This document shows positions 4,591 through 63,649 of a stretch of 64,000 bases of DNA, piece by piece. Each line of letters opens with the position of its first letter. Within the stretch, counting starts at the first letter, position 1. Position numbers and translations under genes: made by a program. Location of the stretch: the UHGV virus genome UHGV-0129253; one strand, written 5' to 3'. The notes beneath the pieces are model-generated. The model did not search any database. It saw nothing but the letters and a program-made list of their open reading frames with translations, and was not told where the DNA came from. The stretch comes from a virus.

Positions 4591-4601
4591 GAGAACTGTT
4601 T

Positions 4602-4626
4602 AGGTGGTGCAATGCACCACCTTTTT
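4602..4626 (+). terminator. Hairpin AGGTGGTGCA-A-TGCACCACCT + TTTT between convergent humD-like and mrp
   Basis: 10-bp stem plus T-run. Confidence 0.55.
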
Positions 4627-4627
4627 A

Positions 4628-5728
4628 TCACACTGCGCGGAATGCGATTTCGCCAGGTATTACTTCACCTTGCCAATACATTTGGGCAGCAACGCGATCT
4701 GCGAGGTCACGATAAATAGCCGTAAATTCACTATCTGGACGACTAATAACGGTTGGTGTTCCGTTATCCAGATCTTCACGAAGAGAGATATGAAGTGGCA
4801 TTTGGCCTAACAACTGCGTGTTGTATTTCTCGGCCAGTTTCTGTGCGCCACCGGTGCCAAAAATTGGCTCGTGATGACCGCAGTTACTGCAAATATGCAC
4901 ACTCATGTTTTCGACGATACCCAGTACCGGCACTTCGACTTTTTCGAACATCACAATGCCTTTCTTCGCATCGATCAGCGCGATGTCTTGCGGCGTAGTT
5001 ACCACAACCGCACCAGTTACAGGAATGTTCTGCGCCAGCGTCAACTGAATATCACCAGTGCCCGGCGGCATATCGAGAACGAGATAGTCCAGATCAGGCC
5101 ATATAGTTTCCTGCAACATCTGCATCAGCGCCTTGCTGGCCATCGGTCCACGCCACACCATTGCATTGTCGTCGGTGACCAGATAACCAATAGAGTTGGT
5201 TGCCAGGCCATGAGACATGATAGGTGCCATGTGAGTACCGTCAGGTGAGGTTGGACGTTGGTTTTCCGCGCCCAGCATGGTTGGAATTGATGGACCATAG
5301 ATATCGGCATCCAAAATACCAACTTTCGCACCTTCAGCAGCCAACGCCAGTGCCAGGTTTACCGCCGTGGAGGATTTACCCACGCCGCCCTTGCCTGAGC
5401 TGACGGCGATAATGTTCTTAACGCCATTAATGCCTGGTTGGTTTTTGACGCGCTTAAGCGTGGCAATGTTGTACGACAGCTTCCAGTCAATAGCCTTTGC
5501 GCCAGTGATACGGAGCAGATCACCACTACATTGCTCTTTCAGGTCTTCAAAAGGCTTATTCCACACGAAAGGCATGATTAGTTCGACATGCAGTGTGTCA
5601 TCCATCAACGCAACATGGTGTAACGCTTTAAGCGTAGTCAGGTTGTGTTTCAGGGTTGGGTGCTGAAAATTAGCCAGCGTACCGGCTACCATTGCTCTCA
5701 GGGCATCCGGCGATTTGGACTCGCTCAT
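4628..5728 (-). CDS. mrp: Iron-sulfur cluster carrier ATPase Mrp/ApbC
   Basis: 366 aa, P-loop SSGKGGVGKS, near-full-length match to enterobacterial Mrp; divergent from metG as in E. coli. Confidence 0.9.
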   Translation of the reverse strand: MSESKSPDALRAMVAGTLANFQHPTLKHNLTTLKALHHVALMDDTLHVELIMPFVWNKPFEDLKEQCSGDLLRITGAKAIDWKLSYNIATLKRVKNQPGINGVKNIIAVSSGKGGVGKSSTAVNLALALAAEGAKVGILDADIYGPSIPTMLGAENQRPTSPDGTHMAPIMSHGLATNSIGYLVTDDNAMVWRGPMASKALMQMLQETIWPDLDYLVLDMPPGTGDIQLTLAQNIPVTGAVVVTTPQDIALIDAKKGIVMFEKVEVPVLGIVENMSVHICSNCGHHEPIFGTGGAQKLAEKYNTQLLGQMPLHISLREDLDNGTPTVISRPDSEFTAIYRDLADRVAAQMYWQGEVIPGEIAFRAV

Positions 5729-5885
5729 CCCGTCTCCTTTATTTTAATTTGCGCAATTGTCGCCTTGTAGTGTACTCCAGCTACGGCATTTAATCATTTA
5801 TGAGAAATGCTGTTATCACATGGCAGACATAAGGCCATTTTGTTACTATCAAGCCCCTTTTCACTACAAAGAAGTAATGCCTACT

Positions 5886-7919
5886 ATGACCCAAGTCGCG
5901 AAGAAAATTCTGGTGACGTGCGCGCTGCCGTACGCTAACGGCTCAATCCACCTCGGCCATATGCTGGAGCACATCCAGGCTGATGTCTGGGTTCGTTACC
6001 AGCGAATGCGCGGCCACGAGGTTAATTTCATCTGTGCCGACGATGCCCACGGTACGCCGATCATGCTGAAAGCGCAGCAGCTTGGTATCACACCGGAGCA
6101 GATGATTGGCGAAATGAGTCAGGAACACCAGACTGATTTCGCAGGCTTTAACATCAGCTATGACAACTATCACTCGACGCACAGCGAAGAGAACCGCCAG
6201 CTGTCTGAGCTTATCTATACTCGCCTGAAAGAGAACGGTTTTATTAAAAACCGCACTATCTCTCAGTTGTACGATCCGGAAAAAGGCATGTTCCTGCCGG
6301 ACCGTTTTGTAAAAGGCACCTGCCCGAAATGTAAAGCGCCAGATCAATACGGCGATAACTGTGAAGTCTGCGGCGCAACATATAGCCCGACTGAATTGAT
6401 CGAGCCGAAATCGGTGGTTTCTGGCGCTACCCCGGTAATGCGTGATTCTGAACACTTCTTCTTTGATCTACCCTCTTTCAGCGAAATGTTGCAGGCATGG
6501 ACCCGCAGCGGCGCGTTGCAGGAGCAGGTGGCGAACAAAATGCAGGAATGGTTTGAATCCGGCCTGCAACAGTGGGATATCTCCCGCGATGCGCCTTACT
6601 TCGGTTTTGAAATTCCGAACGCGCCGGGCAAATATTTCTACGTCTGGCTGGACGCGCCGATTGGCTACATGGGTTCCTTCAAGAATCTGTGCGACAAGCG
6701 CGGCGATACCACCAGCTTCGATGAATACTGGAAGAAAGACTCCACCGCCGAGCTGTACCACTTCATCGGTAAAGATATTGTTTACTTCCACAGCCTGTTC
6801 TGGCCTGCCATGCTGGAAGGCAGCAACTTCCGCAAGCCGACCAACCTGTTTGTTCACGGCTATGTGACGGTGAACGGCGCGAAGATGTCCAAGTCTCGCG
6901 GCACCTTTATTAAAGCCAGCACCTGGCTGAATCATTTTGACGCTGACAGCCTGCGTTACTACTACACTGCGAAACTCTCTTCGCGCATTGATGATATCGA
7001 TCTCAACCTGGAGGATTTCGTTCAGCGCGTGAATGCCGATATCGTGAACAAAGTGGTTAACCTGGCCTCTCGTAATGCAGGCTTTATCAACAAGCGTTTT
7101 GACGGCGTGCTGGCAGGCGAACTGGCTGACCCGCAACTGTACAAAACCTTTACTGATGCCGCTGAAGTGATTGGCGAAGCATGGGAAAGCCGCGAATTTG
7201 GTAAAGCTATCCGTGAAATCATGGCACTGGCTGACCTGGCTAACCGCTATGTCGATGAACAGGCTCCGTGGGTGGTGGCGAAGCAGGAAGGTCGCGATGC
7301 CGATCTGCAGGCGATTTGCTCTATGGGCATTAACCTGTTCCGCGTGCTGATGACTTACCTGAAACCGGTACTGCCGAAACTGACTGAACGTGCAGAAGCA
7401 TTCCTGAATACAGAACTGACCTGGGATGGTATCCAGCAACCGCTGCTGGGCCATAAAGTGAATCCGTTCAAGGCACTGTATAACCGTATCGATATGAAAC
7501 AGGTGGAAGCACTGGTGGAAGCATCCAAAGAAGAAGTGAAAGCCACAGCCGCACCGGTAACTGGCCCACTGGCTGACGACCCGATTCAGGAAACCATCAC
7601 CTTTGACGACTTCGCCAAAGTTGACCTGCGTGTGGCGCTGATTGAAAACGCGGAGTTTGTTGAAGGTTCTGACAAACTGTTGCGCCTGACGCTGGATCTC
7701 GGCGGTGAAAAACGCAATGTCTTCTCAGGCATCCGTTCTGCTTATCCAGACCCACAGGCACTGATTGGTCGTCACACCATTATGGTGGCTAACCTGGCTC
7801 CGCGTAAAATGCGCTTCGGTATCTCCGAAGGCATGGTGATGGCTGCTGGCCCCGGCGGGAAAGATATCTTCCTGTTAAGCCCGGATGTCGGTGCTAAACC
7901 TGGCCACCAGGTTAAGTAA
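5886..7919 (+). CDS. metG: Methionine--tRNA ligase
   Basis: 677 aa from ATG 5886 ([25 protein letters not shown]...); HIGH-type and KMSKS motifs; the ORF track's 5757 start is an upstream artefact. Confidence 0.95.
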
Positions 7920-8003: not shown

Positions 8004-8018
8004 AAACAATTTGTTTTC
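8004..8018. promoter_or_regulatory. Early-type palindrome AAAACAA-T-TTGTTTT
   Basis: Perfect 7-bp arms; upstream of a GATAAT -10-like box. Confidence 0.4.
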
Positions 8019-8425: not shown

Positions 8426-9160
8426 ATGAAAAAGTTGAAAAGTTTAGAAATCCCTGGGACTGGTTATAAATTCTTTATGGACAACGCGGAGTGTGCACCT
8501 AACGCGTTGGAAAAAATACAAAGTCTTATCAACAGCCTTACTGAAGAAGCGAAAGAACTGAATAGCGAGGCGACAAAGGACAATACAGCTAAAATCCAAT
8601 GCTTAAATCTCGTTTCTTATTGTTTATATCAAGTGTCCAAGACACTGATTAAAGGCAATATCTATTACGACGATGAAGACACCTCGACACCTGAAGAAAA
8701 AGATAGCGATGAAGAACTCTATGAAGATATCTCTACTAGTGCGGGTCACGCTGCCTTCGATGCTATGGGTAAATCGTCAGGCATCAGATCGTTTGTTGAA
8801 CAGAACAATTCGACAATAATGATTGAGTACTGTGAACAAACAAGCTCCAAGGCCATACATGTTCTTCACGATGTTGCTGCAGGGGTTCGCTGTGAGGCTG
8901 AAGCGGTCAGAAAAGATGTATTTGGTGCAGACAGTAATACCGTGAAAGCGTTCATCAACAGTGCTCTGCTAAATTCTTACTCAAACCTTATCGTCAATGC
9001 GGCACTATGCGCAAATTCTGGTGAAGAACACATTGTCATAACCGAAACCAAATATGAGCATCAACAGTCACCAACCATAGAAGAGGTAACTGCATTGGCT
9101 ATCAAACAGGCGAGTGAAATTAGTGATGAAATTCTCTCTCTGCTAAACAAAACTAAGTAA
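8426..9160 (+). CDS. Hypothetical acidic protein
   Basis: 244-aa ORF with acidic stretches (DDEDTSTPEEKDSDEELYED). Confidence 0.5.
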   Translation: MKKLKSLEIPGTGYKFFMDNAECAPNALEKIQSLINSLTEEAKELNSEATKDNTAKIQCLNLVSYCLYQVSKTLIKGNIYYDDEDTSTPEEKDSDEELYEDISTSAGHAAFDAMGKSSGIRSFVEQNNSTIMIEYCEQTSSKAIHVLHDVAAGVRCEAEAVRKDVFGADSNTVKAFINSALLNSYSNLIVNAALCANSGEEHIVITETKYEHQQSPTIEEVTALAIKQASEISDEILSLLNKTK

Positions 9161-9229
9161 AACATTGATAATGGCGGTCACAATTTGATTCTTTTCTATA
9201 AGAATCCGTTGATCGCCACTACTCCCCTT

Positions 9230-10020
9230 CCATGCCTGGAATCACATCCTTAAATATCAATAGGTTACAGTTGTTTATACCAATAAGAAAACAACTGAAT
9301 AACAGATCAACGAAACATCAACGCTTTCACCCGATTTGGTCTAAAAAATTGACGTTTTCACACATCACTGCTTATACCCGTAATTCTACGCAGCAGACAG
9401 CGCCACAGCGTCCAATTTTCACCACAGACGACCCAACACACTACCAACAAAAACACACGCTCAAAATCGCTCCCGTTGCGTTACACAACCATATAAACAA
9501 CTTATTTTCAGGTATAACGAAACAACTAAATAACACATATGCCATTTCCAAAAACAACCAACCTCTTTATGGCAGGCTACCGAAAAGACCCACCTCTTCT
9601 CCCCAGGCTACCGGACAACCAACCTAACTTTCACAGGCAATCCGAAAACATTCATACGCGCGATACCCACGACACGCCATTACCCAAACAGCGAAGAAAC
9701 ACCAGAATCACTGAACCCCCAACGAAGCCTGTAACCGCAAGGCTTCTCTCAATCCCAAAAGACACGAAACAGAACAATCACGGGAAACGCCATTACCCAA
9801 CACACGAATAACTACAAAAGCCTTTCACACACTCCAGACAAACAACTCAAACACAATAACGAAAGGAATCGCCCACCTGCCATTACTCCATACACGGAGA
9901 AGAACAATCACCAAAACGACGAGAACACCCCATAGAAGAACCACCGCAAAACGAACGAAACCACATACACCGACAGAGAAAACAACACACCCAATTCACC
10001 AACAGAAATAGTCGCCGTAT
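9230..10020. other. G-depleted A+C-rich noncoding tract (~0.8 kb)
   Basis: Plus strand ~12-15% G by hand count on three 60-nt lines; ORFs in it translate to low-complexity sequence. Confidence 0.5.
9551..9653 (+). repeat. Direct repeats of CAGGCTACCG(A/G)A(A/C)AA..CC(A/C)ACCT (3-4 copies)
   Basis: Same family recurs at 13565-13648. Confidence 0.4.
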
Positions 10021-10219
10021 AGAACGTTCTGGAAGGAGTGAGCATTAACGCCTATAGAGAGGTTGAAACAGATAAAACACGAAGAAAACACAACATGTAT
10101 AGCGAACAAGACAGGTATGTATAAGTGGGGAGGGAAGGAGGGGTGTTGCCTCCTTTTTCGTATTTATTCAACTCCTGATTTTATCCCCCGTAACACCCCT
10201 ACGGTCAGCCTTCGGTCCA

Positions 10220-10360
10220 TACAGGGAAAAGGCTGCATCCTGCTACAGAAACGGCTGGGTTGCCTTCGGGGAACGGCTGGGGATTTTCAGGGAAACGGTC
10301 GAGTTGCCTGTGTGGATTTCGGGAAAAGGCTCGATGCCGGTTCAGGAACGGTGGCGTACC
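10220..10360 (+). repeat. Iteron array: six copies of (C)(A/G)GGAAA(A/C)GGCTG at ~21-24 bp spacing, with a DnaA-box-like TGTGGATTT
   Basis: Copies at 10222, 10246, 10268, 10288, 10320, 10343. Confidence 0.5.
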
Positions 10361-10690
10361 GGTATAGCGTGAGGGAGAGTTGCGGCTACCCACCTGTAAT
10401 GTGCGGGAAGAAGAGAGGCGCTCACGTGCAGGCGAACTTACTTACCGCAGGATTCCCTCTGAATGCCCAACTACAGCGTAATTGTGCCAGACAGCCAACG
10501 GGTCACAATCGATTTCAGTAGGTTTTCGGGGAGATGATTATTCTGCCCACCAGCCACCTTCGGCCACTAAATCAGAATAATGTAAAAAGTGTACTCGGTA
10601 CTGAACCTGAAAACTCACTGCCAAAACCACATTCACCGGAATAAAATCCTTTTCCGCCTTTGTCTTATTGCGATAATAACACCAACAAGT

Positions 10691-10704
10691 AAACAACATG
10701 TTTA
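10691..10704. promoter_or_regulatory. Early-type palindrome AAACAACATGTTTA after a GATAAT box
   Basis: Module CGATAAT(A/T)ACACCAACAAG-AAACAA..TGTTT shared with 13180 and 13670. Confidence 0.35.
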
Positions 10705-10735
10705 GACGTTATATAAACGAAGTGAGGATGAAGAG

Positions 10736-10954
10736 ATGATTAAGATGCCTGTGACGGTTGAGGTGTGGGGCGTGGATTCCCTGGCTGAGTGTCTGGATGC
10801 AGTGGGGCCGGAGTTGTACCGCAAGTTGTGGTCGTTCGTCCCGGCAGAAGGGGAATCGCCCAAAGGGAAGGATATCTGGCACCTGCTGAGTGAAGATGAA
10901 AAGCGAGAGCTGGTGGACGCGGTACACAGCGAGTTCCCGGGCGACGAAGATTAA
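10736..10954 (+). CDS. Small acidic hypothetical protein
   Basis: 72 aa; GTGAGGATG upstream; terminator downstream. Confidence 0.5.
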   Translation: MIKMPVTVEVWGVDSLAECLDAVGPELYRKLWSFVPAEGESPKGKDIWHLLSEDEKRELVDAVHSEFPGDED

Positions 10955-10961
10955 GAGTGAG

Positions 10962-10983
10962 GCCACCAGCACGGTGGCTTTTG
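10962..10983 (+). terminator. Terminator hairpin GCCACCAGCACGGTGGC + TTTTG
   Basis: One of a family of AAGGCCACCA...TGGTGGCCTT hairpins (also 11434, 13053, 13525). Confidence 0.5.
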
Positions 10984-11066
10984 TCGCTATTAACCTCCGG
11001 GGCAGCGCAGCACCGTAACGATATACTTTGTGGCCGTTTTCTTACTGGTATTGTTTACGCAATTCA

Positions 11067-11083
11067 GAAAACAACATGTTTAA
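11067..11083. promoter_or_regulatory. Early-type palindrome GAAAACAACATGTTTAA
   Basis: Downstream of a TATTGT -10-like box; module shared with 11520. Confidence 0.35.
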
Positions 11084-11093
11084 GGATTGCGTT

Positions 11094-11423
11094 ATGTTTG
11101 CAAATATCGACATCAACCAAATTAAGAAATTAACTCAAAAAGAGTTTGATCAGTTTTATGAGTTAGAAGGTTGGTCTTCCACTCTGATCAATTCGCGGTG
11201 GGTGCTTGAGCTGATGACTCGTGATGACGCACCTGCTTTGATGATTTGCGACATGGGTGAAGATGCTGACTTTATGGATATGAGCGAATTTTGTGTGGAC
11301 ACATACAACCGCAGCCAGAAGTACTACTTCACATGCGATAGCGAAAATGACGTGATTTCTAAGGTCTATCTTCACCTCGTCCAGCATTGGGACGTTCAGG
11401 AGTTTCTTGAAGTATTCGAGTAA
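11094..11423 (+). CDS. Hypothetical protein
   Basis: ATG 11094 with AAGGA 7 nt upstream; the longer track start lacks an RBS. Confidence 0.45.
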   Translation: MFANIDINQIKKLTQKEFDQFYELEGWSSTLINSRWVLELMTRDDAPALMICDMGEDADFMDMSEFCVDTYNRSQKYYFTCDSENDVISKVYLHLVQHWDVQEFLEVFE

Positions 11424-11550
11424 CCCCAACCAAAGCCAGCAATGCTGGCTTAATTTCTCTATAGCCGCAGGGAAGAACCTGCATATAGCTCATGCACCTG
11501 ATCAATATGCTTTGTAGCCGTTTTCTTACTGGTATTATTTACGCCATTGA

Positions 11551-11567
11551 GAAAACAAGTTGTTTAC
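11551..11567. promoter_or_regulatory. Early-type palindrome GAAAACAAGTTGTTTAC
   Basis: Follows a TATTAT -10-like box. Confidence 0.35.
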
Positions 11568-11576
11568 GGAGTTGTG

Positions 11577-11888
11577 ATGAAAAAATCATTGGTTCTTGGT
11601 CTGGACAAAGACCAGAAGAGAAAAGAGAAGCCTGCACTGGTTGCTCAATTAACTTTGCTAGACATCGTTGCCAATGGAACCTCTATTCGTCTGTTCCGTG
11701 AAACAGCGGTGTCTTTCGATAAAAACACCTTTACTCGTTATGTAATGAATGTTCGTCGCCAGCGTGGAAAAGGCTGGATGGCATTTCAAAGAATGTGGCC
11801 GGAACATCAGCTCGAACTGGCTTTGATGGAAGTTAACCGCGTGGCCCAGCAAGAAATTCAGAGAGCATCAGTGATGGCAATAGCCTGA
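11577..11888 (+). CDS. Hypothetical protein
   Basis: ATG 11577 with GGAG upstream. Confidence 0.5.
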   Translation: MKKSLVLGLDKDQKRKEKPALVAQLTLLDIVANGTSIRLFRETAVSFDKNTFTRYVMNVRRQRGKGWMAFQRMWPEHQLELALMEVNRVAQQEIQRASVMAIA

Positions 11889-11922
11889 TAATGTGCAAGT
11901 GGTAATTAGTCGACAGTACGAC

Positions 11923-11951
11923 AGCCCCGCCATCCTTACGGGGCTTTTTTG
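11923..11951 (+). terminator. Rho-independent terminator (AGCCCCG...CGGGGCT + TTTTTT)
   Basis: Hairpin plus T6. Confidence 0.65.
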
Positions 11952-12014
11952 TATTGTAAGTACATACTTACGATCATAGAATAGAAAAATAACCAATACA
12001 CTACGGAGAGTGAA

Positions 12015-12410
12015 ATGACCATTAAACGCGAAAAACTGACAGTTGATGTTTACTATGCCTCTGAAACCGCCGAAGGTAAGAATGTGGCAAAAATCACCGT
12101 TGTTACGTACAACACCGAAACTGGCGCCGAAGTACAGGCCAGTACGATCGTGCGTAAAGGTGATGCCTCCGACGGCGAGTACGCGATTCAATACCAGTCT
12201 ATTTTCGATGCAACTGACCCGCTGCTGCTGAAAATCGAGAACTACTTCCGCCAGGTTGATGAAGAGGTGTTTGAACCAATGATGAATATGGTTGACACCG
12301 TATTCGCCTCCAACCTGAATACCAACACTGCCTGGATTGGTCAGTACGGCCTGCGCATTACCTCTGGCATTCCTGCCGACACCTTAATCCCTGAAAGCGT
12401 ATTCGCTTAA
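12015..12410 (+). CDS. Hypothetical protein
   Basis: 131-aa ORF with GGAGAG RBS. Confidence 0.55.
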   Translation: MTIKREKLTVDVYYASETAEGKNVAKITVVTYNTETGAEVQASTIVRKGDASDGEYAIQYQSIFDATDPLLLKIENYFRQVDEEVFEPMMNMVDTVFASNLNTNTAWIGQYGLRITSGIPADTLIPESVFA

Positions 12411-12422
12411 TCCTCTTTAAAT

Positions 12423-12446
12423 GGCGCGTAAACCGCGCCATTTTCT
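12423..12446 (+). terminator. Rho-independent terminator (TGGCGCG-TAAA-CCGCGCCA + TTTTCTT)
   Basis: Hairpin plus T-run. Confidence 0.65.
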
Positions 12447-12456
12447 TATGCCCGAT

Positions 12457-12500
12457 AACAATTTGTTTTCTGCCTTATCTGATTTGTGAAAATGATTTCA
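12457..12500 (+). promoter_or_regulatory. Early-type promoter module (AACAATTTGTTTTCTGCC...TGTGAAAAT)
   Basis: Third copy of the module seen at 1082 and 8004. Confidence 0.35.
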
Positions 12501-12527
12501 CTGAAGCAACTTAATAAGGAAACCATC

Positions 12528-12902
12528 ATGGGACTTGATATCTATATCGAGACACAGCCTAAAAACGATCTGAATAACGAGGCATCCAGAAAGCAGGTTG
12601 CTTACTTCCGTAAGTTCAATGCGCTCGTTGGGTGGATGGAGCGCAACGTAGGTGAAGTCGAAAATTGTGAGCTTTTAGAATTAACGATGAATGACATTTG
12701 TTTTCTGAAGGCTCATTTGATGCACATAAACGAAAGCAATTGCGAAGAGTACTTGCCTACCCGGGAAGGTTTTTTCTTCGGCAGTCAGGAGTACGATGAA
12801 GGTTACTGGCATGACGTGGACAAGCTGAAAAAACTTGTGGAAGACCTGATCAGGAACCACGACTTTCACAATAACAGACTGACCTTCTGCGCCTGGTGGT
12901 AA
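12528..12902 (+). CDS. Hypothetical protein
   Basis: ATG 12528 with AAGGA upstream. Confidence 0.5.
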   Translation: MGLDIYIETQPKNDLNNEASRKQVAYFRKFNALVGWMERNVGEVENCELLELTMNDICFLKAHLMHINESNCEEYLPTREGFFFGSQEYDEGYWHDVDKLKKLVEDLIRNHDFHNNRLTFCAWW

Positions 12903-12904
12903 AT

Positions 12905-13036
12905 ATGGGCGATTTCAAGAAACGCCTGAAGGAAAGAGCCGAGATGGTCAGAAAGCAAAACGCCTCTTCTGTCATCAGATACGCAAGGCAGTTTAGTCGC
13001 AACAACAAATCAGTTGAGGAAAAGATCCTTAGCGTA
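12905..13036 (+). CDS. Small ORF (43 aa, basic), translationally coupled
   Basis: ATG 3 nt after upstream stop; below the track threshold; frame checked codon by codon. Confidence 0.3.
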
Positions 13037-13203
13037 ATCGGGCGATAATTATTAAGGCCACCAGCATTGGTGGTCTTAAATGACTTTTAATAACCGAAGG
13101 TTAGTTTGAAACCTGGCTATCAACTTCCAGAACCTTTCTTGTGTATTCAGCCTGTATTAACTTCTTTTATGCCTTATCTACACTGCGATAATTACACCAA
13201 CAA

Positions 13204-13220
13204 GAAAACAACATGTTTAC
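13204..13220. promoter_or_regulatory. Early-type palindrome GAAAACAACATGTTTAC after GATAAT
   Basis: Module shared with 10670 and 13670. Confidence 0.35.
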
Positions 13221-13237
13221 GCAGTGAGGATATGCTC

Positions 13238-13519
13238 ATGACTGATTTCACCATTACCCCTAAAGCACAAAATGTATTCCTTGAATCATGGCTGGACTTG
13301 CCGGAAACAGAACAGCAAGAAATGGATCATGTGGATTATGACGAGCAGGTAAGCACGCGATTCTTCCACTTTGAGGGATGCGTTTACGACATTGCCGACT
13401 TCATGCGAGATGACCGCTTCCCTGAATGGCACGCAAGCTATCCACTAAACGCCTTTGCCATGCTGATGATCCGTGTGGGTGATTCAGGGGATACCATCGA
13501 CATCGGTCTGCTCCACTAA
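13238..13519 (+). CDS. Hypothetical protein
   Basis: ATG 13238 with GTGAGGAT ~9 nt upstream. Confidence 0.45.
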   Translation: MTDFTITPKAQNVFLESWLDLPETEQQEMDHVDYDEQVSTRFFHFEGCVYDIADFMRDDRFPEWHASYPLNAFAMLMIRVGDSGDTIDIGLLH

Positions 13520-13564
13520 AGACTAAGGCCACCAATGCTGGTGGCCTTAAATGACCATCCTGTT

Positions 13565-13648
13565 TCCCGCAGGCTAAAAACACCAACCTCTTACCTCCAG
13601 GCAACCGACAAACCCACCTGTTCCCGTCCGGCTACCGCAACTTTCCAC
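13565..13648 (+). repeat. Direct repeats CAGGC(T/A)A..CGACAAACCCACCT (3 copies), second locus of the 9551 family
   Basis: Read directly. Confidence 0.4.
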
Positions 13649-13688
13649 TTTGACGCCTTATTCGTACAACGATAATTAACACCAACAA

Positions 13689-13703
13689 GAAAACAATTTG
13701 TTA
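13689..13703. promoter_or_regulatory. Early-type palindrome GAAAACAATTTGTTA after GATAAT
   Basis: ~20 nt upstream of ATG 13724. Confidence 0.35.
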
Positions 13704-13723
13704 TTTACGATAAGGAATTAATC

Positions 13724-14206
13724 ATGAATTTTATCGCTACTGTAAACGCACCCGCACATGGCAATATCGCTGTAACGTTCTCTGACATTGAAAAACGAGT
13801 ACTTGGTGCATGGCGCGACAATGAGACGGTAGAACTGTCAGCACAAGAAAAATGCATTATTGCACGCGACATCATTGGCAATCGTCGTTACTCGCGGGTA
13901 TTTGAGAAAGCGTATGTGGTAAATTCTGGGTTCGGAACGTTCGTCTTTCCGGTGCGCTCCGGGCGATTCTGCCAGTCCAAGCTGATTGAGTTCGCTACGC
14001 AGATTTCTGTCTGGATTAAAACTCAATCGTCGTTCAAATTTTCCGACGATGAAGCAGTATCGCAGGGGATGCGGATCGCCAACAATGCAATTAAATGCAA
14101 AAACATTACGTATACCGCTGGCGTTGACACATGGAAACTGTTTTGCGCTAACTTTATGCTGAATGTATACGCAAGCAACCGCATCCACATCCTTGATGGC
14201 GTGTAA
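13724..14206 (+). CDS. Hypothetical protein
   Basis: 160-aa ORF, AAGGA RBS. Confidence 0.55.
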   Translation: MNFIATVNAPAHGNIAVTFSDIEKRVLGAWRDNETVELSAQEKCIIARDIIGNRRYSRVFEKAYVVNSGFGTFVFPVRSGRFCQSKLIEFATQISVWIKTQSSFKFSDDEAVSQGMRIANNAIKCKNITYTAGVDTWKLFCANFMLNVYASNRIHILDGV

Positions 14207-14208
14207 CT

Positions 14209-14237
14209 GAGAAGAGGGCCAGAAACGGCCCTTTCTC
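14209..14237 (+). terminator. Long hairpin GAGAAGAGGGCC-AGAAAC-GGCCCTTTCTC after ORF 13724-14206
   Basis: ~11-bp stem; loop carries the iteron core GAAACGGCC. Confidence 0.4.
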
Positions 14238-14259
14238 TATAGCCACCAGCTGCCGCAGG

Positions 14260-14340
14260 GAAATTTTCAGAAACGGCGAGGAACGCATTCATGAGCCGAC
14301 GGGAAACGGCCAGGATTTTTTCGGGAAACGGCTGCATTCG
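14260..14340 (+). repeat. Second iteron array: 3 copies of (C)GGGAAACGGC
   Basis: Copies at 14268, 14300, 14322; same core as 10220-10360. Confidence 0.45.
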
Positions 14341-16614: not shown

Positions 16615-17139
16615 TCAAAAAGGCAAAATTCGTTCAACCCAATCGAACAAAACAACTATTTTTCTACCGTTCTCGACACGTAGTGTAACCTGACAAGCAT
16701 CTGCGCCTGCTGACACCCCCTCAATTTCACGGCCATCCGCCATGTACACCCTTATAGATTTGTTTGCTTTGTAGGCTTGGTTGCAAATTGCAAAAAAATC
16801 GCGGCGTGATGGCCGATTATCGACATAATCAGGGTGAACTGTTAGTCGACCTTTGAAATCGTGAGCGATACTGTCAACCACACCTGATTCAATTGTACTA
16901 ATGCGTTCAAGTGGGAGCCTTATACGATTTTCTTTGTCAAAAGGGGCTGGGCAAAGGTCAACTTTGTTACGAGATGGCATGAGGCCATAAACGTACATGC
17001 AAAACGCCTGGCCATCTTCGAGAGTGACCCTTACAGGAATTTGTTCTCTGCGCCAGAACATCAGTAGTTTTTCAACGTTAGTGTAATCTCGCGGCCAGAG
17101 TTCAGCTTGGATACCGTAGGTAATATCTTTGGTTGTCAT
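16615..17139 (-). CDS. Hypothetical protein; start uncertain (alternative ATG at 17217 would overlap the upstream gene by 74 nt)
   Basis: ORF 16615-17217; internal ATG at 17139 lies 4 nt after the lipoprotein stop. Confidence 0.4.
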   Translation of the reverse strand: MTTKDITYGIQAELWPRDYTNVEKLLMFWRREQIPVRVTLEDGQAFCMYVYGLMPSRNKVDLCPAPFDKENRIRLPLERISTIESGVVDSIAHDFKGRLTVHPDYVDNRPSRRDFFAICNQAYKANKSIRVYMADGREIEGVSAGADACQVTLRVENGRKIVVLFDWVERILPF

Positions 17140-17143
17140 GTCA

Positions 17144-17566
17144 TCACAGAGTTGTTGGCAGAATGTCGATGTCACCAGAATTGCTGGTGAACACCCTGAA
17201 CGCTTTTGTGTCTCCATTCTTCAGAGTCGTTTCTCGCTCTTGACGAGCGGGGTTTAGAGCACATAAACCTGCACCTTCAAGAGATGCACCCACAATTAAT
17301 TCTCCGGCATTTAAATGGAAAGTCGCTTTTTCGCCTGTAGCCAGTTTTGCGACAGTTTCGCCATTGATGAAAATGGAAGCATCACATCCAGCTCCTACAA
17401 AACCTGCGTCTCTCATTACCACCAACGTAGCTGGCGCTGCGCTTTGATACTTGAACACTTTGGCCTGCGGTGCTGGTTTGGCGTCATGGATTGATATTGG
17501 ACGTGATTGGCACGCGGTAAGCATCAACACTGGTAACGTTAGTAGAGGGAGAAGCGAGTATTTCAT
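17144..17566 (-). CDS. Putative lipoprotein (lipobox LTAC); candidate superinfection-exclusion factor
   Basis: MKYSLLPLLTLPVLMLTAC signal/lipobox read directly. Confidence 0.5.
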   Translation of the reverse strand: MKYSLLPLLTLPVLMLTACQSRPISIHDAKPAPQAKVFKYQSAAPATLVVMRDAGFVGAGCDASIFINGETVAKLATGEKATFHLNAGELIVGASLEGAGLCALNPARQERETTLKNGDTKAFRVFTSNSGDIDILPTTL

Positions 17567-19520: not shown

Positions 19521-19540
19521 ATAAGTAAGTGATTACTTAG
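19521..19540. promoter_or_regulatory. Late-type motif ATAAGTAAGTGATTACTTAG in divergent promoter region
   Basis: First member of the (G)ATA(A/G)GTAAGTA...TACTTA family. Confidence 0.4.
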
Positions 19541-19557
19541 TGGATTGTAGCAATAAA

Positions 19558-20238
19558 ATGGATGTAAAAATCACGATTTTGCAGGTTGATGTTGCCAACC
19601 TTCGCCCGAATACCTGGAACACCAATTCGGTTGGTGCGCAGAATTTTGAAAAACTGAAAGGTTCTATCGAAAAATTGGGCTTTTTTAAGCCAATTTTGGC
19701 TCGTGAACTTGAAGATGGATTTTTTGAAATCCTCGGCGGTGAACATCGCTGGCGTGCTGCTATTGAGCAAGGAATTTCAACGGTTCCGGTGCTTTCTGTG
19801 GGCAAAATTAGCGATGTCGTAGCTAAACAGATGTCACTGGTGGACAACGAGCGATACGGTGAAGACGACCAAATCGCATTGCAACGCTTCATTGAAGAAA
19901 TTCAGTCAGAACTTGACTATCAACTGTCTGAAATCGCCCCGTATGACGACGAAATCTCGATGGTTTTAGCAAAAGAGGCGGCAATCGACCTTGAAGCACT
20001 GGAGGCATTGTCTCGTGGTAGTGATGAGCCTGTCGATACCGACAAACGAGAGAAAACCGAACGTGTGGGTGCGGAACATCAGACCATGCGCTTCAAAGTA
20101 ACTTTCGATGCGTCAGATCGTGTTGCAGAAACCATAAAAAACATCATCAAAGAGCAGGCTATTAACACCGGTAATGAAATGGAGAACGCTGGTGAGGCTC
20201 TGGTGTGGCTGGTCGACTACTACAAGGAGCGTATGTAA
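19558..20238 (+). CDS. ParB/Srx-fold (ParB N-terminal domain) protein 1
   Basis: GxxRxxA motif (EILGGEHRWRAA); start ATG 19558 (track gives GTG 19540). Confidence 0.6.
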   Translation: MDVKITILQVDVANLRPNTWNTNSVGAQNFEKLKGSIEKLGFFKPILARELEDGFFEILGGEHRWRAAIEQGISTVPVLSVGKISDVVAKQMSLVDNERYGEDDQIALQRFIEEIQSELDYQLSEIAPYDDEISMVLAKEAAIDLEALEALSRGSDEPVDTDKREKTERVGAEHQTMRFKVTFDASDRVAETIKNIIKEQAINTGNEMENAGEALVWLVDYYKERM

Positions 20239-20906
20239 TGACCAAAAAGTTTGAAATCGTATATCGCGACCCGGCAGATCTTATTCCCTATGAGATGAAT
20301 GCCAAAAAGCATGATGAACAGCAGATCCGAGATCTGGCCGCAGCCATTAAAAAGCGCGGATTTGACCAGCCAATTACGGTCGATAAGAACGACGTAATTA
20401 TTACTGGCCACGGCCGCCGTGAGGCTGCAATTTTTGCTGGACTTGAGCGCGTACCGGTTATTGTTCGTGATGATCTGAGTGATGACGAGGTACGTGCAAA
20501 GCGTCTTGAAGATAACCGACTTGCCAGCATTGATTACGATGCAATTAAGCTACAGAAAGAGCTTGAGTCGCTTGTTCTGGACGATATCGAGGTTTTCGGC
20601 TTTGAAGAGCGTGAGTTGAATGTTCTCGTTGGCAGTATGACAGAAGAAATGGACACCGACTCGCTAGTTATCGATCTTGGCGAAGAAACTAAACGACAGA
20701 AGGATGAACACACCGAGATCAGTCGTGAAGTTGCAGCGGAAGAAGTACGTGTTGTCGACGTATTGGGCTTTAAAACGCTCCCTGCTGGCTCTGCCATTGT
20801 TGTTGGTGATTTGCTTGCCCATATGGAAGAAATGACGGGAGAAAGCGGGGTAGACGCATTTGTGGCATATGCGGAGAAGATCTCTTCCGGGGAGATGGCT
20901 GCATGA
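20238..20906 (+). CDS. ParB/Srx-fold (ParB N-terminal domain) protein 2
   Basis: ITGHGRREAA motif; start overlaps upstream stop. Confidence 0.6.
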   Translation: MTKKFEIVYRDPADLIPYEMNAKKHDEQQIRDLAAAIKKRGFDQPITVDKNDVIITGHGRREAAIFAGLERVPVIVRDDLSDDEVRAKRLEDNRLASIDYDAIKLQKELESLVLDDIEVFGFEERELNVLVGSMTEEMDTDSLVIDLGEETKRQKDEHTEISREVAAEEVRVVDVLGFKTLPAGSAIVVGDLLAHMEEMTGESGVDAFVAYAEKISSGEMAA

Positions 20907-21568
20907 GCAAATACATCATCAACGTATCGTTTCAGACACGCGTAAATAAAACCACGCGCACGTTGGAAATCGCTGAGTCGTTCGGGCTTGGCCTGGACGA
21001 AAAAGAGTGGACGCTTTACGACAATCTGGAGCTGGAAGTGAAGCAGGGCGATGTGGTGTACATCACCGGCCAATCCGGTTCCGGCAAATCCGTTGTGCTG
21101 CGCGAGTTGCAACGACAGATGAAGGATGAAGGGCTGTCTGTAGCCTCCATCGATGATTTTACCTTCGATAATGAGGTTAACGTCATCGATCAGTTGGGCA
21201 AAACGACCAGTGATGCGCTTGGGTTGTTATCTATGGCTGGTCTGAACGATGCATATCTGTTTGTTCGCAAGCCTTCTGAAATGTCAGACGGCCAGAAATA
21301 TCGTCTCAAGATTGCCAAACTGATTGAGTCAGGCGCTAAAGTGTGGGCTGCTGACGAGTTCGGCGCTGTTCTCGACCGTGTAACCGCTCAGGTTGTGGCG
21401 TCTAACCTCCAGCGTGCCGCTCGAAAGGTTGGTGCGACGGTAATGGTGGCGACGACTCACGAAGACCTGAAGAACGCGCTGCGCCCTGATATGCAGATCA
21501 CCAAGCACTACAAAGAACGCGTGAAGGTGGAATATCACAATGGTAGTCATGATGAGGTCCATTCATGA
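20903..21568 (+). CDS. ABC-type ATPase (stand-alone nucleotide-binding domain)
   Basis: Walker A GQSGSGKS, signature-like SDGQKYRL, Walker B VWAADEF, H-loop ATTHED; ATGA overlap. Confidence 0.65.
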   Translation: MSKYIINVSFQTRVNKTTRTLEIAESFGLGLDEKEWTLYDNLELEVKQGDVVYITGQSGSGKSVVLRELQRQMKDEGLSVASIDDFTFDNEVNVIDQLGKTTSDALGLLSMAGLNDAYLFVRKPSEMSDGQKYRLKIAKLIESGAKVWAADEFGAVLDRVTAQVVASNLQRAARKVGATVMVATTHEDLKNALRPDMQITKHYKERVKVEYHNGSHDEVHS

Positions 21569-22455
21569 CGGACATCATCATTAAACGCTACCGCCCTGAA
21601 GAGTTTCCGCGTCATCTGGACTTTCTGGAGCGAATGACTGTTACAAAGGGAACTGTAGAGGACTGGCACGCTCTTAAGTCGCTTCACTACAAAACAGACG
21701 GCAAACCTTTCGCGCCAACTTACTATCGCTGCGAACTTGATGACCGTCTGGTGGGCGTCGTGGTTATGGCTTACCCGAAACTACTGTTGGCACCTCGCCA
21801 CCGCATGTTTCCTAAGTTGAAACCAACCACTAATACCACCGTGGCTAACCAGTACTGGGGTCGGTACGTGAATAACAACTTTGCGGTGATCAGTCGCTCA
21901 GTTGTGGATACTCAGTATCGTGGCGTAGGCGTCTCTTATCGAATGATTAACCTGGTTAGCAGGATGCATGACCGGCCAATCATTGAGATCCAGTCCTCGA
22001 TGAGCAAATACAATCCCTTCGCCATGAAAGCAGGGTTTAAGTTCATCCGTCCGGAGCGTCCGAAGAGCTATGAGAGTGCGTTGCGCGTCTTCCAGCGTCA
22101 TTTCCGTTCCGACCCTGGCGACAACGAAGCGATCGTCAAAGAGCTGTTTGCCATGAGTGAGTCTCGCCGTCGTCGTGCGCTGCGTGATCTGGTCGCTGAC
22201 TACCACAAGAACAGTTCCCTGGCAAAAGCTGGGCGGAATCGTGGCACGACGATTCAGGACATTGCCGACAGTCTGGTGGACGAGGCCAGCATTGTGAAGC
22301 TGCTCAAGGACATTCACAACCTGAGCTTTACGTCTCCGTTGTATGGTGTGTACCGAAACCCTGACTTTGGCCGTCGACTGCCTGACACGCTGCCACTGCT
22401 GGCATTCGACAAACAACCTTTGGATAAACCGTTAGAAATTGCTTTACCGGCATAA
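21565..22455 (+). CDS. GNAT-fold acetyltransferase-like protein with uncharacterised C-terminal domain
   Basis: Motif A QYRGVGVS and motif B NPFAMKAGFKFI; ATGA overlap. Confidence 0.5.
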   Translation: MTDIIIKRYRPEEFPRHLDFLERMTVTKGTVEDWHALKSLHYKTDGKPFAPTYYRCELDDRLVGVVVMAYPKLLLAPRHRMFPKLKPTTNTTVANQYWGRYVNNNFAVISRSVVDTQYRGVGVSYRMINLVSRMHDRPIIEIQSSMSKYNPFAMKAGFKFIRPERPKSYESALRVFQRHFRSDPGDNEAIVKELFAMSESRRRRALRDLVADYHKNSSLAKAGRNRGTTIQDIADSLVDEASIVKLLKDIHNLSFTSPLYGVYRNPDFGRRLPDTLPLLAFDKQPLDKPLEIALPA

Positions 22456-22464
22456 GGATTTGCC

Positions 22465-22731
22465 ATGACGTTAACCGATAAACAAAAGGACATCATCAAA
22501 ACGCTCAATCTCGGTTATGAGCGAGGTCATCTACTTGACCTGGACGAATTGCTTGAAGTTTTGCCGTACAAGACAACCAAGCAAAGTATCCAGTTCTCAA
22601 TTCGCGCTCTGATAAAAAAGGGGCTGGTGGAGAAAGGGCATACGCGCCAACGCAGTGACAATCGCTATCACCGCCGGACTCTTGGGTTAACCACTTTAGG
22701 TCGAGCCAAAGCGAAGTTACTGGTGATGTAA
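22465..22731 (+). CDS. Small putative winged-helix DNA-binding protein (88 aa)
   Basis: AAGGA RBS; basic C-terminus. Confidence 0.45.
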   Translation: MTLTDKQKDIIKTLNLGYERGHLLDLDELLEVLPYKTTKQSIQFSIRALIKKGLVEKGHTRQRSDNRYHRRTLGLTTLGRAKAKLLVM

Positions 22732-22755: not shown

Positions 22756-22810
22756 CCTGCTTCTGTATATATAAATAATAAGTAACTTATTAAATATATA
22801 CGGAAGCAGG
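22756..22810. repeat. 55-bp AT-rich long hairpin CCTGCTTCTGTATATATAAATAATAAGTAACTTATTAAATATATACGGAAGCAGG, copy 1
   Basis: Identical copy at 55785-55839. Confidence 0.6.
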
Positions 22811-22926: not shown

Positions 22927-23559
22927 ATGACGGTCGAAAAAGACGAGGTAAAAACTCGCCTGACACCAGCGGAGTGGGCCGAAGCTGAAGCCAAATGGAC
23001 GTCAGGCGAATATACACTCTCAAAGCTGGAGGAAGAGTACGGCATTCGTCGTGAAACACTCTCCAGACATTTCAAAAAGCGAGGATTAGAGAAAGGCGCG
23101 GACTCTGTTGGGAAGATGGTTCGTGAGTCTCTTAAATCTGACGCAGAGCTTCGCGCTAAAGCCCGTGCGGAAAAGATAGAAGAACGTCGTACACGTTATG
23201 ACGGCTGGGCGTATGCGTTGGGGCAGATGGTGATGGTCGAAGTCACTACGGCCAAACGTGAGGGTAAGCCTTTAGGGGCGATTGAGGATTCTCTCAAGAG
23301 CTTACAGAGAGCCAGTAATACCCTTGCAAAATGCTTTGAAGTTTCGTCCAAAGCATTGGGCATGGATCATGCGGAAAATGACGAGGAAGAAATTCCGAAC
23401 CTGGTATTTGGTGAGCTTACGCCTTCCCAGGTGGCGAAATTACGTCAGGAAGACGACGAGCCTGAAATCATCGATGACGAATTGCTTGAGACGTTAGAAG
23501 AAGAAGCTCTAAGCGAATTTGATGCGACAGATGATGGAAGTGAAGGGGAGGACGAATAA
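22927..23559 (+). CDS. Putative terminase small subunit (N-terminal HTH, acidic C-terminus)
   Basis: Directly upstream of and overlapping TerL. Confidence 0.5.
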   Translation: MTVEKDEVKTRLTPAEWAEAEAKWTSGEYTLSKLEEEYGIRRETLSRHFKKRGLEKGADSVGKMVRESLKSDAELRAKARAEKIEERRTRYDGWAYALGQMVMVEVTTAKREGKPLGAIEDSLKSLQRASNTLAKCFEVSSKALGMDHAENDEEEIPNLVFGELTPSQVAKLRQEDDEPEIIDDELLETLEEEALSEFDATDDGSEGEDE

Positions 23560-53825: not shown

Positions 53826-54494
53826 ATGACCAAGATCTTTGTGGTTGGCGGCACAAAGGGCGGGCCTGGCAAATCCACTGTTGCCCAGCAAATTGCCGTT
53901 TGCCTGAAAGTCAAAAAGAAGAAGAAGGTTTATATCACTGATATAGATATTCAGCGCACGACAACAAGCTGGTGTGAAGACCGTAGACAGAACGAAGACC
54001 TTGAGCTGATTCCTTTTGCATACGTTCAGGATGACATCATTAAGCACCTAAAATCGCTTCAGGGTAGAGCTGAGTTTGTAGTGGTAGATGCTGGTGGCTT
54101 TGACTCCGAAATTCAGCGACAAGCGATGCTGATGGCCGACGTTATCATTATCCCGCTTCGTCCCAAGCGTCGTGATTTGAAATCTCTGCGTGACATTGAT
54201 CCTATTATCGACAATGTTCGTAATGTAAACGATAAAGTGAAGGTCCGCGCGGTCATGAACCAGTGCCCGGCTTTGCCATCACAAGTGTCTCGCATTCTGG
54301 CGGCTAAAGAGATTGTTGAGACGTTTGGCATCGAGTCTGCGCCAGTCAATTTATATAACCGCAACGTCTATGATGATGCGGAAGAGTCTGGTCGTTCTAT
54401 CTTTGAAATGACCGGTAGCGAGCGCGACAAAAAGGCGGAAGCCGAGTTTGAAGAATTTGTAGATTATCTGTTGAGTCTGGAGGAAGAAGAATAA
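53826..54494 (+). CDS. ParA/ParF-type partition ATPase
   Basis: Deviant Walker A GGTKGGPGKST; 222 aa. Confidence 0.8.
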   Translation: MTKIFVVGGTKGGPGKSTVAQQIAVCLKVKKKKKVYITDIDIQRTTTSWCEDRRQNEDLELIPFAYVQDDIIKHLKSLQGRAEFVVVDAGGFDSEIQRQAMLMADVIIIPLRPKRRDLKSLRDIDPIIDNVRNVNDKVKVRAVMNQCPALPSQVSRILAAKEIVETFGIESAPVNLYNRNVYDDAEESGRSIFEMTGSERDKKAEAEFEEFVDYLLSLEEEE

Positions 54495-54853
54495 TGTCCA
54501 TGAAAATGGGTGACCTAGCAAAGCGCAAAGAGCCTGATGCACCGGCCAAGAACACAACTCCTTTGCGCCAACCAGTCAGACCACAGGGACGCCCGACTCG
54601 TGGCAAAGAGAAAATTAAAAGCCGCACAATGTCACTGGAGGACGAATACTTCGAACTGCTGGAAATGATGAAGTTCATCCCTCGTTTCGAGAAGTTCACC
54701 CGTTCTGACGTGATTCGCGCAGCCATTTTCCATCTGGCAGAGAAGTCACCGCAGGAAATCGAGGACATCGTGAAATTGAATGAGGCGATCACCGCTGCCG
54801 ATGTCACGATGCGTACCGATGAAATCAAACGAGAGTTGATGAAGAAAGGTTAA
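54494..54853 (+). CDS. Putative partition partner (ParG/ParB-like, basic N-terminus)
   Basis: 119 aa, start overlapping ParA-like stop. Confidence 0.5.
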   Translation: MSMKMGDLAKRKEPDAPAKNTTPLRQPVRPQGRPTRGKEKIKSRTMSLEDEYFELLEMMKFIPRFEKFTRSDVIRAAIFHLAEKSPQEIEDIVKLNEAITAADVTMRTDEIKRELMKKG

Positions 54854-55784: not shown

Positions 55785-55839
55785 CCTGCTTCTGTATATA
55801 TAAATAATAAGTAACTTATTAAATATATACGGAAGCAGG
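55785..55839. repeat. 55-bp AT-rich long hairpin, copy 2 (identical to 22756-22810)
   Basis: Exact repeat read directly. Confidence 0.6.
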
Positions 55840-60253: not shown

Positions 60254-60733
60254 GCGGTAGTTGTGAAAGCTGATTTGTCAAAAATCCCTTCTATTTCAGG
60301 AAATAACGGTTATTCACTTCGTTGTGAGGAAGTAAAGATAAACGGTGAGTCGGCATATTGCAGCTATTCCGTTTGCCAGCACACCATTCTTGCCTTCAAA
60401 GAAAACCGTCTTCCTCGAACTTCTTTCCAGTCGTGCGCAACCGCTATTAAAGCAGGCAAATGCAAGGCGTTAAAAATGATGGTTGAAGAGATTCGTAAAG
60501 GAGAATCTCTGTATTTCGAAGATATGACCGCGCTCATTAAGGAGGTTGAAGAACGGAATAAACAAGCCAGAACTATAAAACGAAAACGTGACAGTGTAAC
60601 GATTAATAGCATGGTTAAGAAGAGCACCACATCACAAACAGCGATCACTGACGTGTATGCGGCGTTGCTTGAAGAAACAACAAAAGAAACACATGAGCAA
60701 ATCGATCAACATATGGAGGCAAAACAACAATGA
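60251..60733 (+). CDS. Hypothetical Cys-containing protein (160 aa)
   Basis: ORF. Confidence 0.45.
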   Translation: MAVVVKADLSKIPSISGNNGYSLRCEEVKINGESAYCSYSVCQHTILAFKENRLPRTSFQSCATAIKAGKCKALKMMVEEIRKGESLYFEDMTALIKEVEERNKQARTIKRKRDSVTINSMVKKSTTSQTAITDVYAALLEETTKETHEQIDQHMEAKQQ

Positions 60734-63478: not shown

Positions 63479-63553
63479 GATGGTGTAGCTCAGCGGTAGA
63501 GCAGTTGGCTGTTAACCAACTGGTCGGTGGTTCGAATCCACCCACCATCGCCA
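63479..63553 (+). tRNA. tRNA-Asn (anticodon GUU)
   Basis: Hand-folded cloverleaf: acceptor GATGGTG/CACCATC, D-stem GCTC/GAGC, anticodon loop CTGTTAA, T-arm GGTGG-TTCGAAT-CCACC, encoded CCA; unlike the enterobacterial tRNA-Asn as I recall it. Confidence 0.8.
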
Positions 63554-63558
63554 ATTTA

Positions 63559-63645: not shown

Positions 63646-63649
63646 AATT

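Follow-up and report, generated by a model that had tools for sequence, protein, structure and literature searches.

A pair of conserved direct-repeat arrays bracketing the early genes of SSU5/pHCM2-type phage-plasmids: candidate protein-binding sites with a possible role in partition

Which function is served by a cluster of short direct repeats lying in a non-coding part of a phage-plasmid genome: replication, partition, transcriptional control, packaging, or an activity of RNA? This question was addressed for a window of 64 kb, i.e. the whole stretch of DNA that was analysed. Because of its megablast matches, we assign the window to an E. coli phage-plasmid of the SSU5/pHCM2 type: the region 9000-12000 is 97-99% identical to E. 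coli plasmids of ~107-112 kb (e.g. pXH988_2), and further matches are to the phages Cyrano, PhiR41_1 and CMS-2020a, with Salmonella phage SSU5 and Klebsiella phage-plasmids as more distant ones. With the annotation of Cyrano as a guide, position 1 of the window corresponds to about 85.1 kb in Cyrano, and the genes follow the order early region, terminase and structural genes, lysis genes, parA, and DnaB-like helicase and primase. The window also carries genes for a methionyl-tRNA synthetase (5757-7919, + strand) and an ApbC/Mrp (MinD-like) ATPase (4600-5700, − strand), as well as three tRNA genes (63479-63722).

Among clinical Enterobacteriaceae, phage-plasmids of the SSU5/pHCM2 type are widespread (S. 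Typhi pHCM2, Shigella pWPMR2, carriers of ESBL), and Y. pestis pMT1 is related to them. Their cis-acting maintenance and replication sites are essentially unmapped, and the pair of arrays described here offers a handle on this gap. We conclude from sequence comparisons that the arrays are a genuine, deeply conserved and unannotated cis-element of this clinically widespread family, which appears to belong to a kind of element already known, the direct-repeat protein-binding array. Possible uses include finding the centromere or the lytic origin, and designing minimal replicons or incompatibility tools to cure these elements.

Two arrays of one motif and their conservation

The positions of both arrays and of the elements around them are given in Table 1. 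The core-to-core spacing of array 1 is 22-22-22-31-22, and all copies in the two arrays lie on the + strand. The sequence GGGAAAMGG occurs five times in the 64-kb window, always on the + strand and always within the two arrays. The clustering is far beyond chance: up to six cores were observed per 130 bp, whereas at most three were reached when the window was simulated 300 times with a first-order Markov model. The extended consensus derived from 61 distinct sites in ten elements reads yCrGGGAAAMGGCyGG, with a weaker CC ~14-15 nt past the start of the core. One extra core, at 14222, occupies the loop of the terminal hairpin of the 160-aa gene, a loop that carries a core-like GAAACGG in certain lineages only; this hairpin was missed by our terminator scan because its T run is weak.

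Table 1. Coordinates in the window of the two arrays, their flanking elements and the genes of the candidate binder.
Feature	Position	Strand	Description
Hairpin + T5, terminator-like	10132-10158	+	Ends the A/C-rich stretch; 65 bp 5' of array 1; position conserved
Left flank of array 1, CCCCCGTAACACCCCTACGGTCAGCCTTCGGTCCATACA	10185-10223	+	Nearly invariant in alignments
Array 1	10224-10357	+	Six direct units; GRAAMGG cores at 10226, 10248, 10270, 10292, 10323, 10345
TGTGGATTT, DnaA-box-like	10311-10319	+	7/9 versus TTATCCACA; in the 31-bp spacer between units 4 and 5
GGTATAGCG	10361-10369	+	Conserved element ~18-20 nt past the start of the last core; found after most arrays
Promoter and leader module TTATTGCGATAATAACACCAACAAGTAAACAACATGTTTAG of the first early gene	10664-10703	+	Invariant block; outside the array
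Hairpin GGGCC-AGAAAC-GGCCC + TTTCTCT	14216-14238	+	Ends the 160-aa gene; read directly from the sequence
GCCGCAGGGAAA	14253-14263	+	Precedes the array-2 cores
Array 2	14258-14334	+	Cores at 14270, 14303, 14325; spacing 33-22; same motif and strand as array 1
parA (222 aa, type Ib) and 119-aa putative ribbon-helix-helix partner	53826-54853	+	parA 53826-54494, partner 54494-54853; candidate binder

The first-pass annotation of this DNA had described six GGGAAA(A/C)GGCTG repeats at roughly two-helical-turn spacing, with a DnaA-box-like sequence embedded in them and a recurrence of the core at 14260-14340. The near two-turn spacing (22 bp as measured, with one interval of 31 bp) and the recurrence, i.e. 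the three cores of array 2, agree with our findings. Six same-strand cores do exist, but they are degenerate, and the literal 12-mer fits just the copy at 10224, the other array-1 copies being off by 1-3 positions. As for TGTGGATTT, it is present in the array, but its match to the DnaA box is limited to seven positions out of nine and is not kept in relatives: the spacer that holds it reads CGCTATACGAACC in SSU5, and this part of the array is missing from the main Klebsiella clade. Because of this lack of conservation we judge TGTGGATTT to be a chance match, and reject it as a DnaA box.

The arrays are conserved across the family. The array-1 region has matches in 712 plasmid records (from Klebsiella, Escherichia, Enterobacter, Salmonella, Citrobacter, Cronobacter and others), and both arrays occur in 12 of 12 related phage records. 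The 22-22-22-31-22 spacing is identical in SSU5, pHCM2, Citrobacter, divergent E. coli plasmids and dozens of IMG/VR contigs. Array 1 reads 44-22-31-22 in Enterobacter L010 and Citrobacter sp. L014, because one unit no longer fits the search pattern; it has four units (22-22-22) in the main Klebsiella clade, and in PhiR41_1 it lacks a 22-bp block, which is one unit length. The array-2 spacing of 33/34-22 is kept in Enterobacter, pHCM2, Citrobacter and others, and the last unit of this array, TTTTCGGGAAACGGC, is present in every lineage examined but pMT1. In an alignment of 16 sequences, the mean pairwise identity is 0.87 for the cores versus 0.73 for the spacers and flanks, and there is one insertion column within the 143-bp array versus 37 in 96 flanking positions. 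Because core identity is higher and insertions are nearly excluded from the array, this alignment indicates that both the cores and their spacing are under selection in the main clade.

Beyond the main clade, the motif is found at both syntenic places in three deep lineages (the divergent Klebsiella plasmid pRHB30-C05_4, Cronobacter JZ38 and Pectobacterium Drgb1), the proteins of which mostly share 35-70% identity with those encoded in the window. These lineages differ in copy number, and also in spacing (37/16/12 in the divergent Klebsiella, 27/58 in Cronobacter JZ38 and 27/17/17/33 in Pectobacterium). Y. pestis pMT1 has neither array at the syntenic sites, and Yersinia plasmids are absent from the matches to array 1 and to the 119-aa protein. 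A degenerate-pattern scan of IMG/VR returned SSU5-like contigs together with unrelated tandem iterons of 11 or 22 bp that contain GAAAMGG by chance, and the motif array therefore appears to be family-specific. We found no description of these repeats in the literature. The first-pass annotation had asked whether the repeats are absent in close relatives, and had proposed a binding array as one possible type of element; the repeats proved to be conserved across relatives, and with their near two-turn spacing they look like a conserved repeat array of the protein-binding kind.

A natural deletion derivative of this family, the E. coli plasmid pRHB27-C18_3 (52 kb, L229), has no annotated structural, terminase, DnaB or primase genes, and retains RepA, the ParA/ribbon-helix-helix pair and the early-gene cluster. 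Its array 1 matches ours, and an IS100 directly adjoins the match, probably being inserted in the right end of the array. Because the early genes are retained too, this plasmid does not discriminate between the hypotheses considered below.

Transcriptional setting and the choice between DNA and RNA

Array 1 lies in ~1.5 kb (9160-10740) that have no PGAP annotation, and no annotated gene underlies the array-1 match in 57 of the 60 plasmid records listed; the gain for annotation is thus ~1.5 kb left empty by most automatic annotations. Within the left flank of array 1, the CCTACGG part is retained even in Pectobacterium and the divergent Klebsiella lineage. GGTATAGCG recurs in variant form (TATAG, TACAG or TGTAG) behind the final unit of one of the two arrays in the window, in both Klebsiella lineages, in Cronobacter JZ38 and in Pectobacterium. 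In SSU5, pHCM2 and Enterobacter, an 80-aa gene encoded on the other strand heads towards array 1. The terminator-like hairpin of Table 1 stands upstream of this array; array 2 is enclosed by the hairpin of the 160-aa gene on one side and by several terminators of the opposite strand on the other. From these hairpins and terminators we infer that both arrays lie in zones sheltered from transcription. No promoter was found between the upstream terminator and array 1, nor overlapping either array.

Further upstream, ~750 nt of the + strand (~9390-10130) are A/C-rich, G/T-poor and unannotated, with internal repeats of 31 nt and ~29 nt. A promoter-like TTGACG-N18-TATACC stands ahead of this stretch (~9350-9385), which is conserved in SSU5, the divergent Klebsiella lineage and Pectobacterium, and which is probably a long non-coding RNA of ARN-rich, Hfq- or Rho-attracting composition.

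Could the arrays themselves act as RNA, as a non-coding transcript serving as a sponge or scaffold for a FljA-like protein, Hfq or CsrA? The motif is kept while its spacing shifts in the deep lineages, every copy is on one strand, the gene of a FljA-family protein lies at a distance of 2.3 kb, and the probable A/C-rich RNA lies just upstream. Sponge RNAs of the CsrB/RsmZ type likewise carry a short purine-rich motif repeated many times on one strand; unlike them, the arrays have no promoter, hairpin presentation, covariation or Rfam match, their motif is not ANGGA, and their phasing is DNA-like. Thus, Rfam gave no match at the arrays at either gathering or permissive thresholds; single-sequence folding of both strands was no better than that of shuffled sequence (z of +0.73 and +0.38); and the RNAalifold covariation term in 16 divergent sequences was −0.62 kcal/mol, which is essentially none. 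The arrays are also located downstream of terminator-like hairpins. CsrA requires GGA, which is missing from two of the six array-1 cores (CAGAAACGG at 10246) and from their array-2 counterparts. FljA is an RNA-binding translational repressor, but the FljA-family protein of the element is conserved at 31% in the divergent Klebsiella and absent from Pectobacterium, where the motif persists, and it was rejected as the binder. An RNA-level function is thus very unlikely in our estimation. The strict 22-bp phasing frozen in the main clade is a feature of the DNA helix, and given this phasing and the negative RNA results we treat the arrays as double-stranded-DNA sites. They are best read as candidate cis-acting binding sites for a sequence-specific protein encoded by the element.

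The FljA-family protein (200 aa; 16615-17217, − strand) matches the Pfam family Flag1_repress (FljA, phase-1 flagellin repressor) with an E value of 2.5e-84, and shows a faint Hfq-like match in its C-terminal part; in relatives it is annotated as "transcriptional regulator" only, and Pectobacterium Drgb1 lacks it. Through it, the phage-plasmid may be able to repress the flagellin of the host or mRNAs of its own. The Pectobacterium plasmid Drgb1 has its own hfq gene (L143 31355-31576), between the homologue of the 249-aa protein gene and the DnaB-like helicase gene.

The early-gene cluster (10736-14206), which is bracketed by the two arrays, comprises 3.5 kb of small genes that have no significant Pfam or NCBIfam match (the 160-aa neighbour of array 2 is considered separately below). 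The invariant block of the first early gene comprises an extended −10 (TGcGATAAT) and a leader with AAACAAnnTGTTT. Throughout the window, at least ten genes are headed by a ~45-bp module in which a T-rich stretch is combined with an extended −10 (TGnGATAAT-like), with ACACCAACAAG and with the palindrome AAACAAnnTTGTTT, located ~20-45 nt ahead of the start codon. These genes are most of the small early ones as far as 13724, plus terS, parA and the gene for the DnaB-like helicase (positions 8005, 8056, 9495, 10691, 11069, 11554, 12457, 13206, 13691, 22850, 22875, 53779 and 56709). The palindrome has 19 matches versus 0.6 expected. This module looks like an early-promoter family with a common leader or operator, on which a repressor, either global or translational, may act.

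This location raises the question of whether the arrays are transcriptional control or boundary elements, at which a regulator would load and then silence, loop or insulate the 10736-14206 block in the plasmid state. The regulator could be a ParB_N protein acting like KorB, or the 88-aa winged-helix protein. The bracketing itself fits this proposal, as most of the enclosed genes have their own conserved promoter/leader module, and array 1 is ~310-450 bp upstream of the first of these promoters; in addition, RNA polymerase or another protein could make a further contact at the conserved GGTATAG-type element that follows the last unit, and few non-structural regions are as well conserved as the cluster encoding the ParB_N proteins, the ABC-type ATPase and the winged-helix protein (66-87% in the divergent Klebsiella). 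However, neither array is overlapped by a promoter, and array 2 comes after the last gene, in a convergent zone. Moreover, palindromes are the usual targets of ParB-family and winged-helix dimers, and an abundant palindrome, AAACAAnnTTGTTT, exists separately in the element. We consider a boundary function rather unlikely; if the arrays were ordinary regulator sites, their value would be mainly one of annotation.

The cluster in question (19540-22731, + strand) lies directly upstream of terS and encodes two ParB_N-domain proteins, an ABC-type ATPase, a 296-aa protein and the 88-aa winged-helix protein.

Origins of replication and packaging sites

The first-pass annotation had also seen a resemblance to a plasmid origin, and this part of its proposal did not survive. 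RepA (CYRAN_63) is encoded at 60633-61688 of Cyrano, outside the window, and the two sides of repA carry at least 15 CTCTCTAYAGTGGWTA iterons with a 21-bp spacing (Cyrano 60.1-62.4 kb; L136 18150-18640 and 19730-20350), the consensus of which is unrelated to GGGAAAMGG. The same locus contains GGATCT (GATC) repeats, exact DnaA boxes TGTGGATAA and AT-rich DNA. Judged by these sequences, the repA locus is a P1/RepFIB-style oriR, the true origin of the prophage-plasmid; the relatives with a replicon typing shown are all "IncFIB". The four iterons reported downstream of repA in IncpKPHS1 plasmids (PMC6735626) fit the RepA locus, not the arrays. Because RepA carries its own, different iterons elsewhere, we reject the arrays as the plasmid origin.

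The likeness to iteron origins is nevertheless real. As in theta-type origins (P1 incC/incA, F ori2, R6K gamma, lambda ori, P4 ori/crr), there are 4-6 same-orientation repeats with a period of ~22 bp, the cores are conserved and the spacers variable, and copy number shifts by whole units; both arrays have at least three direct repeats of ~17-22 bp with helical-phase spacing, and a second array of the same motif a few kb away recalls P1 incA and P4 crr. Unlike these origins, the arrays have no adjacent AT-rich unwinding element, no conserved host-factor site (DnaA box or IHF) and no adjacent cognate initiator gene. The nearest 40-bp stretches with at least 70% A+T lie at 10640 for array 1 and 14820 for array 2, i.e. 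at distances of ~280 bp and ~480 bp, respectively.

These observations bear directly on the proposal of a lytic (phage) origin, or of a bipartite origin plus enhancer like P4 ori/crr or SPP1 oriL/oriR, where the iteron-like units would be recognised by a phage initiator that brings in the DnaB-like helicase and primase module. We regard such an origin, and this mechanism with it, as conceivable but doubtful. It would agree with the 22-bp same-strand periodicity frozen in the main clade, with the presence of two arrays of the same motif 4 kb apart, and with their non-coding location next to a probable non-coding RNA gene and the early-promoter cluster. Furthermore, helicase, primase and Pol III form a module of the element's own, distinct from RepA, and the 22-bp tandem iterons of unrelated phages happen to contain GAAACGG. 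Besides the missing AT-rich region and the non-conserved DnaA-like box, three lines of evidence argue against it. First, no initiator gene is adjacent: the 160-aa neighbour of array 2, predicted to have an alpha/beta fold (AF2, pLDDT 85), has no PDB match, is conserved at 32% in the divergent Klebsiella and is absent from Pectobacterium, and was rejected as an initiator or binder, while the 249-aa protein encoded upstream of DnaB shows a weak gp59-like resemblance only. Second, the replication and recombination gene set is T4-like (UvsW, UvsY, gp32-like, RecA-like). Third, spacing and copy number vary in the deep lineages.

Two other possible indicators were set aside. GC skew is uninformative, as it tracks gene orientation. 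The Chi sites beside array 2 are not a special mark, being part of an element-wide enrichment (14 on the + strand and 7 on the − strand of the 64-kb window).

A packaging site, pac- or cosB-like, bound by the small terminase or by the 88-aa winged-helix protein encoded just upstream of terS, is highly improbable. The R sites of lambda cosB (the gpNu1 sites) presumably share with the arrays the short core GGAAACG, in multiple copies, and three proteins are well kept in the divergent Klebsiella (91% identity for TerL, 61% for terS and 78% for the 88-aa protein). In contrast with the cosB R sites, the arrays are away from the terminase genes, have a single orientation and lack an accompanying cosN-like or IHF element. 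They are 8.6-12.6 kb from terS (22927-23559), the gene within or next to which the known pac and cos sites are located, and none of the deposited phage records of the family has either terminus at an array. In addition, pMT1 retains terS and terL without the arrays; conversely, the 52-kb derivative described above retains array 1 and the ParA/ribbon-helix-helix pair without annotated terminase or structural genes. TerS has no Pfam family match, and therefore no match to the Nu1 family.

Candidate binders and a possible role in partition

Plausible DNA-binding proteins encoded in all motif-bearing lineages are the 119-aa partner of ParA, the 88-aa winged-helix protein (78% and 59% identity in two deep lineages), the two ParB_N proteins (66/67% and 45/71% in deep lineages) and terS. 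ParA matches the Pfam families MipZ, AAA_31, CbiA and ParA. Its 119-aa partner has a weak match to a ribbon-helix-helix family (E 2e-4) and a basic N-terminal tail followed by a beta-alpha-alpha sequence pattern, from which we assign it putatively to this class. The putative DNA-reading beta-strand, IKSRTxSxEDE, is invariant in three deep lineages, where the protein is otherwise 34-49% identical. This invariance parallels that of the DNA motif, and we therefore count it in favour of the 119-aa protein as the binder. Its gene (CYRAN_29) is expressed in lysogens of the close relative Cyrano (PMC9928086). A search for distant homologues of this protein with genomic context returned only close relatives.

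With these elements in hand, our leading reading, which we hold as possible rather than probable and only slightly ahead of the lytic-origin and boundary proposals, is that the arrays are centromere-like sites, split in two, for the type Ib ParA and its 119-aa ribbon-helix-helix partner. Dimers of the partner would coat the repeat units on one face of the helix to form a partition complex, which the nucleoid-bound ParA ATPase would move so that each daughter cell receives a copy; the terminators on the approach sides would stop transcription from stripping this complex. Ribbon-helix-helix centromere-binding proteins are known to bind direct-repeat arrays (ParG/parH, ParR/parC, omega). The likeness to type Ib and II centromeres (TP228 parH/ParG, R1 parC/ParR, pSM19035 omega) is threefold: the sites are direct-repeat arrays, sometimes at more than one locus; the element encodes a cognate small Walker-type ParA with a small putative ribbon-helix-helix partner; and transcription is kept off the sites. 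When the window and the rest of Cyrano were swept for k-mers and tandem repeats, the non-coding direct-repeat arrays detected were only the RepA iterons and those described here. It is also worth noting that pMT1 has lost the arrays and that the Yersinia plasmids have no match to the 119-aa protein; this co-loss weighs little, because pMT1 lost many other genes too.

Several features speak against a partition role. Type Ib centromeres normally lie beside the par operon, usually upstream of parA, and autoregulate it, whereas the arrays are ~40 kb from par and hold their position relative to the early-gene cluster; no repeat array is found near or upstream of parA in three deep lineages. Typical ribbon-helix-helix repeats are contiguous units of 4-11 bp, and the ~10-13-bp core recurring every 22 bp is both larger and sparser. 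Finally, the spacing is not kept in the deepest lineages. To our knowledge, the dispersed sopC sites of N15, which like the arrays occupy more than one locus, are the sole precedent for a centromere located away from par.

A more elaborate version of the partition reading would have a split, remote centromere, or a bipartite pair like P4 ori/crr, bracket the early genes so that one and the same complex segregates or replicates the element and also insulates or silences these genes. We regard this combination as unlikely. If true, plasmid maintenance would be physically coupled to the lysis-lysogeny decision, in an arrangement akin to, and distinct from, the sopC sites of N15.

Another repeated element of the window is an identical 53-bp AT-rich palindrome with a perfect stem (CTGCTTCTGTATATAT...ATATATACGGAAGCAG), which occurs at 22757-22809, just upstream of terS, and at 55786-55838, just upstream of the operon encoding the 249-aa protein, DnaB and primase. 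Its candidate roles are those of a terminator, a regulatory cruciform or an origin-like element.
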